DNA of 64,000 nt from Escherichia coli (GTDB taxonomy: Bacteria > Pseudomonadota > Gammaproteobacteria > Enterobacterales > Enterobacteriaceae): assembly GCF_022846255.1 (NCBI RefSeq), contig NZ_AP025682.1. One strand, written 5' to 3'. A model generated the notes under the pieces. That model ran no database searches and was not told where the DNA came from. It saw only the letters and a list, made by a program, of their open reading frames with translations. Below are positions 5,995-32,267 of this stretch, one piece after another. Numbering within the stretch: the stretch's first letter is position 1; each line of letters opens with the position of its first letter. The position numbers were made by a program, and so were the translations under genes.

Positions 5995-6945
5995 ATGCGT
6001 GTGTTACTGGCTCCGATGGAGGGTGTACTTGACTCTCTGGTGCGGGAATTACTGACCGAAGTTAACGACTACGATCTGTGCATCACCGAGTTTGTCCGCG
6101 TGGTGGATCAACTGCTGCCAGTAAAAGTCTTTCATCGCATTTGCCCTGAGCTACAAAATGCCAGCCGGACACCATCCGGTACGCTGGTGCGCGTGCAGTT
6201 GTTAGGGCAGTTCCCACAGTGGCTGGCAGAGAATGCCGCCCGTGCGGTGGAGTTAGGTTCCTGGGGCGTGGATCTTAACTGCGGCTGCCCGTCGAAAACG
6301 GTTAACGGTAGCGGTGGTGGGGCAACGTTACTGAAAGATCCTGAACTCATCTACCAGGGTGCAAAAGCGATGCGCGAAGCTGTACCGGCGCATTTGCCTG
6401 TCAGCGTAAAAGTGCGTCTGGGCTGGGACAGCGGTGAGAAGAAATTTGAAATCGCCGATGCGGTGAAACAGGCTGGCGCTACGGAGCTGGTAGTACATGG
6501 GCGGACAAAAGAGCAGGGTTACCGCGCGGAACATATTGACTGGCAGGCGATTGGCGAGATTCGCCAGCGGCTTAATATTCCGGTGATTGCCAACGGTGAA
6601 ATCTGGGACAGGCAGAGTGCGCAACAATGCATGGCGATCAGCGGCTGCGACGCAGTGATGATTGGTCGCGGGGCGCTCAATATTCCCAACCTGAGCCGGG
6701 TAGTAAAATATAACGAACCGCGAATGCCGTGGCCGGAGGTGGTTGCTTTGCTGCAAAAATATACCCGTCTGGAAAAGCAGGGCGATACCGGGTTATATCA
6801 CGTTGCGCGGATTAAACAGTGGTTGAGTTATTTGCGTAAAGAATACGATGAAGCAACGGAATTATTTCAGCATGTTCGGGTGTTGAATAATTCCCCTGAT
6901 ATTGCAAGGGCTATTCAGGCAATTGATATCGATAAGCTGCGATAA
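5995..6945 (+). CDS. dusC: tRNA-dihydrouridine synthase C
   Basis: ORF track 5929..6945; start placed at [10 protein letters not shown] (5995); Dus-family TIM-barrel motifs (DLNCGCP) visible. Confidence 0.9.
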
Positions 6946-7332
6946 TAGTGGAATCGCAGTTTATCAGAGACAATGAATCGCTTATTCAGCTTCATCATCT
7001 TGTTGCGCTCCTTTCATGAGCTAAGCCACATATTGCCACTGGCGCAAGGAGCGCGCAGGGGGAGGACAATCGCCTCCTCCCCCTGCACCCCCGGGCTCTG
7101 GCGAACAAAATCGCCGCTGCGCGGTACCTTCAGCTTATCCCCTTCGTCTACCGGGTCGGGCGCGAGGTAACGTCCTTGTAAGACGCGCCCTCAGCCCACA
7201 TCCATGTGGGCTGCCCCGGCCTTCGGGGAACGCTTCAGCGATTTTGACGCCACCAACACCGGAGCTGTTTGCAAATCAAGTACACAAAATATCTAGTTCC
7301 TGACCTGACAACTTATATGCCATATCTGATTT

Positions 7333-7416
7333 TTAAAATATCATCTTAAATACGCCAGTCACCACCAGTAGCCCAATCAGGAAAATAATCAATACAGCCC
7401 AGAGTATAATTTTCAT
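7333..7416 (-). CDS. yohP: Small membrane protein YohP (27 aa)
   Basis: Reverse complement of 7333..7416 translates MKIILWAVLIIFLIGLLVVTGVFKMIF*, a single TM helix recalled as the K-12 small protein YohP; below the ORF-track size cutoff. Confidence 0.7.
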   Translation of the reverse strand: MKIILWAVLIIFLIGLLVVTGVFKMIF

Positions 7417-7639
7417 TGGCGTTCCTTTATTTGTGAGTGCTGAATAAGTATAGGAAAAAACGAAGCCCTTTGCCGTTATCCATAAACGATTAAGATAAAT
7501 CGGAAGATATCATTCACTTAGTGTATATTTTTCTGGATATGTCGTTTTATTGCTACTGATGTATTGCCACGCGAAACTAAAAAATATATCGCAACACACG
7601 GTAATCTCCGCGCACCTTTTCTTACCTGATTATTCCCCC

Positions 7640-9076
7640 ATGAATCGTGATTCCTTTTATCCCGCCATCGCCTGTTTTCCGCTGTTACTGATGCTGGCCG
7701 GGTGTGCGCCTATGCATGAAACCCGCCAGGCGTTAAGCCAGCAAACGCCCGCTGCACAAGTTGACACCGCATTACCCACGGCGCTGAAAAATGGTTGGCC
7801 AGACAGCCAATGGTGGCTGGAGTATCACGATAATCAACTCACTTCCTTAATTAACAATGCACTACAGAACGCACCGGATATGCAGGTGGCTGAACAGCGC
7901 ATTCAGCTAGCTGAAGCCCAGGCGAAGGCAATTGCTACTCAGGATGGTCCGCAGATCGACTTTTCTGCGGATATGGAGCGGCAAAAAATGTCGGCAGAAG
8001 GCTTAATGGGGCCGTTTGCTCTGAACGATCCGGCCGCAGGTACGACCGGTCCGTGGTACACCAACGGAACTTTTGGCTTAACGGCGGGCTGGCATCTCGA
8101 TATCTGGGGAAAGAATCGGGCGGAGGTTACTGCCCGCCTGGGTACGGTTAAAGCACGGGCGGCGGAACGCGAGCAAACCCGCCAATTGCTGGCTGGCAGC
8201 GTAGCCCGCCTGTACTGGGAGTGGCAAACCCAGGCGGCGTTAAACACGGTCTTGCAGCAAATAGAAAAAGAGCAGAACACCATTATCGCGACCGATCGCC
8301 AGCTATATCAGAACGGGATTACTTCTTCAGTTGAAGGTGTGGAAACCGATATTAATGCCAGCAAAACCCGGCAGCAGCTCAACGATGTCGCGGGGAAAAT
8401 GAAAATTATTGAGGCACGGTTAAGCGCACTTACAAATAACCAGACAAAGTCATTGAAGCTTAAACCGGTCGCGTTGCCGAAAGTGGCAAGCCAGCTTCCT
8501 GATGAACTGGGGTACTCCTTACTGGCCCGGCGGGCAGATTTGCAGGCGGCGCACTGGTACGTTGAGTCATCGCTAAGCACCATTGATGCGGCAAAAGCGG
8601 CATTTTATCCTGACATCAACCTGATGGCCTTCCTGCAACAGGATGCGTTGCACTTAAGCGATCTGTTCCGTCATTCCGCGCAGCAAATGGGCGTTACGGC
8701 AGGCCTGACGCTACCCATTTTCGATAGTGGTCGTCTTAACGCCAATCTCGATATCGCAAAAGCCGAAAGCAACTTGTCTATCGCCAGCTACAACAAAGCG
8801 GTGGTTGAAGCGGTGAATGACGTGGCGCGGGCAGCCAGTCAGGTTCAGACACTTGCGGAGAAAAACCAGCATCAGGCGCAAATTGAGCGCGATGCCTTGC
8901 GTGTGGTAGGTCTTGCGCAGGCGCGCTTTAACGCGGGCATCATTGCTGGTTCCCGCGTCAGCGAAGCCAGAATCCCGGCGCTGCGTGAGCGGGCCAATGG
9001 CCTGTTATTGCAAGGGCAGTGGCTGGATGCTTCCATTCAACTCACTGGTGCGTTGGGCGGGGGTTACAAACGCTGA
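7640..9076 (+). CDS. mdtQ: Outer-membrane efflux lipoprotein MdtQ (OprM/TolC family), apparently intact (478 aa)
   Basis: ORF track 7550..9076; start placed at MNRDSFYPAIACFPLLLMLAGC (7640), a lipobox; single uninterrupted frame. Confidence 0.85.
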   Translation: MNRDSFYPAIACFPLLLMLAGCAPMHETRQALSQQTPAAQVDTALPTALKNGWPDSQWWLEYHDNQLTSLINNALQNAPDMQVAEQRIQLAEAQAKAIATQDGPQIDFSADMERQKMSAEGLMGPFALNDPAAGTTGPWYTNGTFGLTAGWHLDIWGKNRAEVTARLGTVKARAAEREQTRQLLAGSVARLYWEWQTQAALNTVLQQIEKEQNTIIATDRQLYQNGITSSVEGVETDINASKTRQQLNDVAGKMKIIEARLSALTNNQTKSLKLKPVALPKVASQLPDELGYSLLARRADLQAAHWYVESSLSTIDAAKAAFYPDINLMAFLQQDALHLSDLFRHSAQQMGVTAGLTLPIFDSGRLNANLDIAKAESNLSIASYNKAVVEAVNDVARAASQVQTLAEKNQHQAQIERDALRVVGLAQARFNAGIIAGSRVSEARIPALRERANGLLLQGQWLDASIQLTGALGGGYKR

Positions 9077-16856: not shown

Positions 16857-17774
16857 ATGCCACTCTCAAAGGTCTGGGCAGGTTCACTGGTTTTGTTGGC
16901 AGCCGTGAGCCTGCCGCTACAGGCGGCTTCCCCCGTTAAGGTTGGTTCAAAAATCGATACGGAAGGCGCGCTGCTCGGCAATATCATTTTGCAGGTGCTG
17001 GAAAGTCACGGCGTTCCTACGGTAAATAAAGTGCAACTGGGAACGACTCCCGTAGTGCGCGGGGCGATCACTTCTGGCGAGCTGGATATCTATCCGGAAT
17101 ATACTGGCAATGGCGCGTTTTTCTTTAAAGATGAAAACGATACGGCATGGAAAAACGCGCAGCAAGGCTATGAGAAAGTCAAAAAACTCGATGCAGAGCA
17201 AAACAAGTTAATCTGGCTGACGCCCGCGCCTGCAAATAACACCTGGACCATCGCCGTGCGTCAGGATGTGGCAGAGAAAAACAAACTCACTTCGCTTGCC
17301 GAGCTGAGTCGTTATCTGAAAGAGGGCGGCAACTTCAAACTGGCAGCCTCGGCAGAGTTTATCGAACGTGCCGATGCCTTACCCGCGTTTGAAAAAGCCT
17401 ATGGCTTTAAGCTCGGTCAGGATCAGTTGCTGTCACTGGCCGGTGGTGACACGGCGGTGACGATCAAAGCCGCTGCCCAGCAAACTTCTGGTGTTAATGC
17501 CGCAATGGCTTACGGCACCGACGGCCCGGTTGCGGCGCTGGGGCTGCAAACCTTAAGCGATCCGCAAGGCGTGCAACCTATCTACGCGCCTGCGCCAGTG
17601 GTGCGTGAGTCGGTGCTGAAAGAGTATCCGCAAATAGCACAGTGGCTACAGCCAGTCTTCGCCAGCCTCGATGAAAAAACATTGCAGCAGCTGAATGCCA
17701 GCATTGCAGTGGAAGGACTGGATGCCAAAAAAGTGGCAGCCGACTACCTGAAACAAAAAGGGTGGACGAAGTAA
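16857..17774 (+). CDS. osmF: Periplasmic substrate-binding protein OsmF (YehZ) of the YehZYXW ABC transporter
   Basis: ORF track 16857..17774; signal peptide; recognised; first gene of a four-gene ABC operon. Confidence 0.9.
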   Translation: MPLSKVWAGSLVLLAAVSLPLQAASPVKVGSKIDTEGALLGNIILQVLESHGVPTVNKVQLGTTPVVRGAITSGELDIYPEYTGNGAFFFKDENDTAWKNAQQGYEKVKKLDAEQNKLIWLTPAPANNTWTIAVRQDVAEKNKLTSLAELSRYLKEGGNFKLAASAEFIERADALPAFEKAYGFKLGQDQLLSLAGGDTAVTIKAAAQQTSGVNAAMAYGTDGPVAALGLQTLSDPQGVQPIYAPAPVVRESVLKEYPQIAQWLQPVFASLDEKTLQQLNASIAVEGLDAKKVAADYLKQKGWTK

Positions 17775-19861: not shown

Positions 19862-20593
19862 ATGAAGATGTTGCGCGATCCGCTCTTCTGGCTCATTGCT
19901 CTGTTTGTGGTGCTGATTTTCTGGCTACCCTATAGCCAGCCGCTGTTCGGTGCTTTATTTCCGCAGCTGCCACGGCCCGTTTATCAGCAAGAAAGTTTTG
20001 CAGCTCTGGCGCTGGCTCATTTCTGGCTGGTGGGGATCTCAAGTTTGTTTGCTGTAATTATCGGCGTTGGTGCCGGAGTTGCCGTCACTCGCCCGTGGGG
20101 AGCAGCGTTTCGCCCGATGGTAGAAACCATTGCCGCCGTTGGGCAGACTTTTCCACCTGTAGCGGTGCTGGCGATTGCCGTTCCGGTGATGGGGTTTGGT
20201 CTGCAACCGGCGATTATCGCGCTGATCCTTTACGGCGTGCTACCCATCTTGCAGGCGACACTTGCCGGGCTGGGAGCGATTGATGCCAGCGTGACAGAAG
20301 TTGCGAAAGGTATGGGAATGAGTCGTGGTCAGCGACTGCGTAAGGTCGAGCTACCGCTGGCGGCTCCGGTGATTCTGGCGGGCGTGCGAACTTCGGTGAT
20401 TATCAACATTGGTACGGCGACGATCGCCTCAACGGTAGGGGCCAGCACGCTGGGTACGCCGATCATCATCGGGCTTAGCGGATTTAATACCGCGTATGTG
20501 ATCCAGGGGGCGTTACTGGTGGCACTGGCGGCGATCATCGCAGACCGCCTGTTTGAAAGGCTGGTGCAGGCGTTCAGCCAGCACGCAAAATAA
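19862..20593 (+). CDS. yehW: ABC transporter permease YehW
   Basis: ORF track 19862..20593; membrane permease. Confidence 0.88.
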
Positions 20594-20681
20594 AGGTATA
20601 ACCTGCGAGCATGACGCCACCAATTCCGCCTAACGCCATAAACAGGAACAGGGCGATGACCCCAATTTTAGCTATGCGCAT
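20574..20681 (-). CDS. yohO: Small membrane protein YohO (35 aa)
   Basis: Reverse complement of 20574..20681 translates [35 protein letters not shown]; recalled as the K-12 small protein YohO; 3' end overlaps yehW 3' end by about 20 bp. Confidence 0.65.
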
Positions 20682-31854: not shown

Positions 31855-31939
31855 ATAAAAAAACCTGCTGGTGAGGCAGGTTCTTTTATTTACTATTTTC
31901 AGGCCTAACACCACAGCCTGTGCAACATCGTGTTCCAAC
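31855..31939 (-). ncRNA. Candidate antitoxin small RNA (OrzO-like), about 85 nt
   Basis: Minus-strand sigma70-like promoter (-35 TTGCAA at 31969-31974, 17-nt spacer, -10 TATAAT as complement of 31946-31951); intrinsic terminator (7-bp stem 31862-31868/31876-31882 followed by a U-run on the minus strand); 5' segment complementary to 32086-32105 of the toxin 5' UTR. Confidence 0.5.
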
Positions 31940-31945
31940 GAACGA

Positions 31946-31996
31946 ATTATAACCACGGCTGGACCCCGTTGCAATTAAGATAATGAGATTTATAAT
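31946..31996. promoter_or_regulatory. Divergent back-to-back promoters sharing one palindromic -35 hexamer (TTGCAA)
   Basis: Plus strand: TTGCAA (31969-31974), 16-nt spacer, TATAAT (31991-31996), predicted TSS about 32001-32004. Minus strand: the same TTGCAA read in reverse, 17-nt spacer, TATAAT (complement of 31946-31951). Confidence 0.5.
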
Positions 31997-32177
31997 CCAG
32001 ACCGTTGGGACGTTGCGCCGGATCGAACCTATTTCAAGTCCTGGCTACCGGACGGGTGGTGCTGCAGGTGGTGCCCTGATCCGGAGTGCAACATCGTGGT
32101 CCAACATACGTAAACCAGTATCGACAGGCAGTGTAAGGGTAAGGTGCTGGTGTTGCGCTCCTTAATAAGGAGAGCGG

Positions 32178-32267
32178 ATGGACACGCTGACACAAAAGTT
32201 AACCGTGCTCATTGCTGTACTGGAGCTATTAGTGGCTCTGTTACGGTTGATTGATTTGTTGAAGTAA
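32178..32267 (+). CDS. zorO: 29-aa hydrophobic type I toxin candidate (ZorO-like / TisB-like)
   Basis: ATG at 32178 preceded by SD TAAGGAGA (32166-32173); product MDTLTQKLTVLIAVLELLVALLRLIDLLK is a single amphipathic/hydrophobic helix with a basic C-terminus; predicted 5' UTR of about 174 nt; own terminator follows. Gene name assigned from memory of the Zor-Orz family, not verified. Confidence 0.6.
   Translation: MDTLTQKLTVLIAVLELLVALLRLIDLLK

Follow-up and report, generated by a model that had tools for sequence, protein, structure and literature searches.

Our results identify, practically beyond doubt, the minus-strand reading frame at positions 7333-7416 of a 64,000-nucleotide stretch of Escherichia coli DNA (contig NZ_AP025682.1, hereafter the window) as yohP, a gene encoding a real membrane protein. 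This gene is already known, annotated and experimentally characterised, and in itself it brings no novelty. The explanation that we favour, and that we consider very probable, is that yohP stands on its own as a gene and encodes a single-pass inner-membrane protein of 27 residues with a depolarising role. We propose that YohP would accumulate in the inner membrane and there cause a sub-lethal drop in membrane potential, and that the lowered potential would push the cell into a protected state of low metabolism. That depolarisation and metabolic silencing are the native role of the protein seems reasonably likely to us, this role being in part extrapolated to native levels; we hold the mechanism with less assurance than the identity of the gene because the effects were seen on premature expression from a plasmid.

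The features of the locus, and those of the other small genes of the window, are collected in Table 1. With its 27 aa, yohP lies under the 60-aa default minimum of the ORF listing, and the same ORF, with its ATG start at 7416-7414 of the minus strand, is present in the list made with a 20-aa minimum. The product forms one transmembrane helix; K2 and K24 flank this helix, G15 and G21 lie within it, and the IGLLVVTGV motif, which includes G15, is present. Mean hydropathy was scanned over all 698 ORFs of 20-50 aa found in the six frames of the window, and the yohP ORF ranked first of the 698 (GRAVY 2.47, z = 3.96; population mean -0.15, sd 0.66). An ATG start together with a Shine-Dalgarno (SD) match of at least 5 nt was found in just three of the 15 top-ranking ORFs, namely YohP, YohO and ZorO. 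An earlier reading of the letters, here called the sequence-only reading, had described a hydrophobic 27-aa ORF on the minus strand at this place and had named it yohP; the coordinates, the translation and the first rank in hydropathy bear out the description, and the name agrees with the RefSeq annotation and with the matches to the family models NF011345 and PF25659.

Table 1. Position and properties of the features of the window discussed in the text
Feature	Coordinates	Strand	Remarks
yohP CDS	7333..7416	minus	27 codons and TAA stop (stop within the coordinates); product MKIILWAVLIIFLIGLLVVTGVFKMIF
Shine-Dalgarno AAGGA	7423..7427 (7427-7423)	minus	6 nt before the yohP ATG; read from the sequence
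yohP 5' UTR, ~25 nt	7417..7441	minus	extent predicted from the position of the -10
Putative sigma-S-type -10, C-TATACT	7447..7453	minus	-13 C at 7453; hexamer 7452-7447
dusC	5995-6945	+	on one side of yohP and convergent with it (RefSeq annotation)
mdtQ	7640-9076	+	on the other side of yohP and divergent from it; intact 478-aa ORF
Dispersed repeat, 272 bp	6985..7256		between the convergent dusC and yohP; TwoAYGGAY-like core 7247-7108, minus
yohO	20574-20681	minus	35 aa; NF010225 at 80.1 bits
zorO (the 'toxin candidate')	32178-32267	+	29 aa; strong SD; upstream region ~31880-32177

The yohP gene was reportedly first found in 2008, and Hemm 2008 and Hemm 2010 are said to be its discovery papers. 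In RefSeq the ORF of the window is named yohP and its product 'small membrane protein YohP' (WP_000691708.1), a protein annotated also in K-12 NEB 5-alpha; the gene is b4679 in MG1655. YohP scores 67.3 bits with the NCBIfam equivalog NF011345 (cutoff 58; residues 1-27 of 27) and 50.6 bits with Pfam PF25659 (cutoff 27), again over its full length. The position of yohP, downstream of and convergent with dusC and between this gene and mdtQ, is the one expected for the family in Escherichia, Citrobacter and Salmonella, and the same organisation is given in PMC12719787. The protein of K-12 is identical over its 27 residues and occupies the same dusC-mdtQ position, and promoter, SD and ORF together share 99.7% identity with the window over 309 nt. 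A 901-bp query around yohP matched the chromosomes of many O26 and O103 strains of E. coli at 100% identity. Of 5426 complete E. coli genomes, 5421 gave a match to a 161-bp query covering gene and promoter, and in 5343 of them the identity was at least 99%. The exact protein is recorded under the name YohP on at least 1000 contigs, and relatives carrying this name occur in Yersinia, Pantoea, Rouxiella and Izhakiella.

How far is the reading frame kept outside E. coli? The search for orthologs was anchored on DusC and covered 80 loci, one genome per species, in which yohP was sought within 4 kb of dusC. An intact ortholog, always convergent with dusC, was present in 22 of the 80 loci, a figure that covers yohP near dusC (within 4 kb) and not whole genomes. 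These 22 loci belong to eight genera, since they come from Escherichia, Citrobacter, Salmonella, Enterobacter quasihormaechei, Lelliottia, Franconibacter, Rahnella and Yersinia. The coding comparison was made with the window and 21 of the 22 ortholog loci, which gave 19 distinct coding sequences. In every copy compared the gene is 27 codons long, while its stop codon may be TAA, TAG or TGA; among the 27 codons, first, second and third positions vary at 14, 3 and 25 sites, respectively. The dN/dS ratio is about 0.02-0.05 (Nei-Gojobori, against Citrobacter, Salmonella and Enterobacter), with synonymous sites near saturation, and the residues that are invariant in the 22 sequences include K2, W6, G15, G21 and K24. 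Because the length is fixed at 27 codons, third positions vary and dN/dS is low, we conclude that yohP encodes a translated protein under selection. The sequence-only reading had named conservation of the frame and the expression of tagged fusions as ways of checking its proposal. The first gives a frame kept under strong purifying selection across Enterobacterales, and for the second, products made from the native locus have been published both for E. coli (PMC12719787) and for Salmonella (PMC5437024). That 7333-7416 might be a hydrophobic ORF arisen by chance in U-rich intergenic DNA is suggested by its very short length and by the ease with which T-rich sequence yields hydrophobic ORFs, but conservation, family models and published expression all contradict this idea, to which we give next to no probability; the pattern of variation by codon position and the published tagged expression exclude it.

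Conservation is not universal. In the type strain of E. albertii (NBRC 107761; locus L005, 1090-1388) some 410 bp, corresponding to 7061-7471 of the window, have been cleanly deleted and both flanks remain; the yohP ORF is lost together with its SD and -10 box, and so is the greater part of the downstream repeat. In several species of Citrobacter (loci L009, L010, L013 and L019) dusC and mdtQ are present with no yohP beside them, and Klebsiella, Serratia and Pectobacterium are among the genera that have no yohP near dusC. As judged from these sequences, yohP is dispensable in some lineages, namely E. albertii and several Citrobacter.

The control region was studied in an upstream alignment of 16 orthologous yohP regions. 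Here the intergenic DNA diverges fast, and the SD and the -10 motif stay in place: a purine-rich GGA/GGAG block occupies the SD position in all 16 regions, in Escherichia, Citrobacter and Salmonella the motif CCTATACTTA recurs some 30 nt before the ATG, and the -10 variants CTACACT, CTATACT or CTATAGT are found in Enterobacter, Lelliottia, Rahnella and Yersinia. There is no recognisable -35 upstream of the yohP -10. A C at -13 followed by TATACT, with no recognisable -35, is the classic -10 preferred by sigma-S. Similarly, small sigma-S-dependent genes of the yohP class in Salmonella have canonical sigma-S -10 features and no conservation of the -35 (PMC5437024). Thus, the C-TATACT box is a putative sigma-S-type -10 that would act on yohP in the strain of the window, and a promoter of this type was missed by the promoter scan because the scan demands a -35 match. 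The estimate of about 25 nt for the 5' UTR follows from placing the transcription start some 6-8 nt downstream of the -10. The 5' UTR and ORF fold less stably than dinucleotide shuffles (z = +2.1), the SD is unpaired in the predicted fold of the mRNA, and U makes up 40% of the ORF compared with 25% of the window; from such predictions, the yohP mRNA is short, U-rich and unstructured. Intrinsic terminators were scanned for on both strands from dusC to mdtQ, and none was predicted.

Published work on expression fits a promoter of this kind. In Salmonella, 3xFLAG-YohP is abundant in stationary phase and nearly undetectable in an rpoS mutant (PMC5437024). In E. coli, chromosomal SPA-tagged YohP, expressed from its own promoter, increases between early and late stationary phase, and it also accumulates in minimal medium and when oxygen is limiting; the induction by SDS/EDTA and H2O2 that had been reported earlier was not reproduced (PMC12719787). 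The Salmonella transcript had first been catalogued as a non-coding sRNA, STnc1330 (PMC5437024), and since it is short, abundant and sigma-S-dependent, it might be asked whether it acts chiefly as a base-pairing sRNA in which the ORF is secondary. We hold this to be most improbable. Variation affects 25/27 third positions against 3/27 second positions, and synonymous sites close to saturation with amino acids kept indicate a constraint at the level of the protein and not of the RNA. Furthermore, the YohP protein has been detected in both E. coli and Salmonella, the predicted fold is weaker than random, and in an Rfam search no family covered the region of the yohP transcript.

As a protein, then, YohP has been followed to its place in the cell. 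It is found in the inner-membrane fraction, resists carbonate extraction and is oriented mainly N-out/C-in; its dimers withstand SDS and depend on G15 (PMC7549839), and stable dimers are abolished by the K24E change (PMC12542507). Two routes of insertion have been described. The signal recognition particle (SRP) recognises YohP post-translationally and, with FtsY, hands it to SecYEG or YidC (PMC7549839). In addition, the yohP mRNA associates with the membrane without any need for translation, by virtue of its uracil content and structure, and YohP translated from membrane-bound mRNA inserts in an SRP-independent manner (PMC10066597).

Production of YohP leads to a sub-lethal loss of membrane potential (PMC12542507, PMC12719787), to nucleoid condensation (PMC12542507), to a psp response with induction of PspA and PspC and to raised (p)ppGpp (PMC12719787), and to more cardiolipin, lower membrane fluidity and reduced protein synthesis (PMC12542507, PMC12719787). 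These effects come mostly from premature plasmid expression in exponential phase (PMC12719787). Cells deleted for yohP tolerate ciprofloxacin and oxidative stress less well, and they show few proteome changes and no growth phenotype under inducing conditions (PMC12719787). The published E. coli experiments were done in K-12, whose YohP is identical to that of the window, and the 3' flank of yohP differs in the strain of the window. A comparable protein is YncL, of 31 aa, controlled by sigma-S and heat shock and known in Salmonella as STnc1110. Like YohP, it is a single helix under sigma-S control that appears in stationary phase and causes sub-lethal depolarisation and nucleoid condensation; unlike YohP, it is encoded at a different locus outside the window, and the two proteins have no sequence relationship.

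Small hydrophobic inner-membrane peptides that lower the membrane potential are also made by type I toxin-antitoxin systems, of which ZorO and TisB are examples. Could yohP be the toxin of an unrecognised pair of this type, repressed by an antisense RNA? The protein would suit such a role, being small and as hydrophobic as its GRAVY value indicates, and depolarising the membrane and condensing the nucleoid as TisB and ZorO do. On the opposite strand, a promoter-like ATGCCA-16-TATCAT at 7317-7344 (+) would run antisense into the 3' end of yohP, and in the K-12 allele ATGACA-16-TATCAT was seen by eye at the same spacing, with different sequence beyond it. This is the sole site of its kind opposite yohP, but sites like it occur at chance level (1 found, 1.3 expected), and beyond Escherichia the DNA that holds its -35 is not conserved. 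In type I systems the toxin is paired with an antitoxin sRNA, its mRNA carries a long regulatory 5' UTR, and the peptide arrests growth or kills. For zorO a 5' UTR of 174 nt is reported, and in this the mRNAs of type I toxins are unlike that of yohP, whose short leader, weak fold and open SD leave no long occluding UTR. Nor does the physiology agree: YohP has no supported antisense partner, it is abundant at native stationary-phase levels and its effects are sub-lethal, and the deletion makes the cell more, and not less, sensitive to stress. A tblastn search with YohP against plasmid and phage collections gave no match, although matches of such a hydrophobic peptide may be lost to the low-complexity filter. 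Of the traits of a type I pair, yohP thus shows the hydrophobic peptide; neither the antitoxin sRNA nor the occluding 5' UTR was found, and we rejected this membership as very unlikely.

A different proposal is that YohP mainly assists or regulates a larger membrane protein as one of its subunits, and that the depolarisation on overexpression is incidental. According to a passage of PMC12719787, most of the bacterial small membrane proteins that have been characterised act in this way. The outer-membrane channel gene mdtQ divergently adjoins yohP in 18 of the 22 loci, YohP disturbs the oligomerisation of another membrane peptide, magainin-2 (PMC12542507), and the invariant G15 and G21 align on one face of the helix. 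AcrZ, MgtS, MgrB and CydX resemble YohP in size, single-helix architecture and stress-linked expression; they have, however, defined partners that are often genetically linked, whereas the linkage of yohP with mdtQ is not conserved, no partner of YohP has been reported, and its deletion alters few proteins. As to MdtQ itself, it is a protein of the outer membrane and YohP one of the inner membrane; yohP is present without mdtQ in four loci, and 11 close mdtQ relatives have no yohP alongside. In K-12 an intact yohP stands beside an mdtQ pseudogene, frameshifted where the window has an intact ORF of 478 aa. We therefore rejected YohP as an accessory subunit of MdtQ, as conserved co-occurrence with the partner gene fails and the two genes are decoupled both ways; the wider proposal of a subunit of some larger membrane protein is quite unlikely in our view.

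The sequence-only reading had also suggested that the window carries at least three very small membrane proteins, and this holds, YohP, YohO and ZorO all being identified. In the related strain E2865, RefSeq places yohO next to mlrA and yehW, and the 3' end of yohO runs some 20 bp into the convergent yehW. The product of the 29-aa ORF, MDTLTQKLTVLIAVLELLVALLRLIDLLK, has the same sequence as the synthetic ZorO peptide of PMC6669753, and NCBIfam has no model for ZorO. The gap of 1.2 kb between yehK and yehL of E2865, which matches zorO by coordinate mapping, is free of any RefSeq annotation, and the alignment of this strain suggests a tandem duplication of about 500 bp at zorO, where the window has a single copy. 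We also observed that yehR, at about 25000 in the window, is free of the IS66 insertion that splits it in E2865 (locus L085, 22575-24865). The window itself represents a different strain from the references that are 100% identical around yohP, and elsewhere it is 94-98% identical to E2865.

The region 3' of yohP is occupied by a repeat of 272 bp, and here the window and K-12 part ways. From mdtQ up to and including the yohP stop codon the two share 99.7% identity, and they diverge directly after it, the K-12 copy of the repeat (locus L082, 1089-1359) lying in the opposite orientation with 88.6% identity. As a consequence of orientation, the strand of the repeat motif is sense to yohP in the window and sense to dusC in K-12. 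The arrangement of the window occurs in 1999 complete E. coli genomes (about 37%) and that of K-12 in 3311, and both orientations are found in other Escherichia species too. A simple recent inversion of the repeat was considered and rejected, given that the alleles share 88.6% identity against 99.7% for the flank, that the linkers differ, and that both orientations exist in other Escherichia.

E. coli genomes carry a median of three copies of this repeat, at 17,478 places in total, and among the matches listed it is unannotated; a further copy lies between aqpZ and lysO (locus L084, 1501-1766). The repeat is very strongly structured (fold z = -7.84). Three E. coli copies score 27.7, 30.6 and 30.9 bits with the TwoAYGGAY model (RF01731), below its gathering score of 43. 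The outer stem is present, the AUGGAU loop of hairpin 1 fits AYGGAY, and the loop of hairpin 2 reads AAGGAC or AGGGAU. In an alignment of nine sequences, 15 of the 54 predicted pairs show compensatory changes, most of them contributed by one Lelliottia copy. The repeat may also have a function of its own as an RNA. At one end of it (6915-6998, minus) we noted an AAAGGAG-N8-ATGATGAA that reads outward into the flank, as it does in the aqpZ-lysO copy. The outward ORF has 27 aa in the window (MMKLNKRF...) and runs as MMNQHI-stop at the aqpZ-lysO copy, which indicates that its coding content is not conserved.

With regard to yohP, the repeat probably lies within its 3' region or bounds it. It is conceivable, though we find it rather doubtful, that the repeat serves as part of the yohP 3' UTR, or as a terminator or insulator between yohP and dusC, and that the dosage of YohP differs in this way between the two groups of alleles.

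What do these results mean for small membrane proteins and for YohP? The case of yohP shows that real genes fall below the usual length cutoffs for ORFs, and the combination of hydropathy, ATG start and SD singles out the three true small membrane proteins of the window, YohP, YohO and ZorO. YohP serves as a model substrate for the insertion of small membrane proteins; it has little weight here as a discovery, and its value is one of calibration. The orientation polymorphism of the repeat is the sole part of the locus that was not already described, and it could affect how strongly YohP, with its link to stress tolerance, is expressed. If the dosage of YohP did differ between the repeat allele groups, the depth of the stationary-phase depolarisation, and with it tolerance, could differ between them as well.
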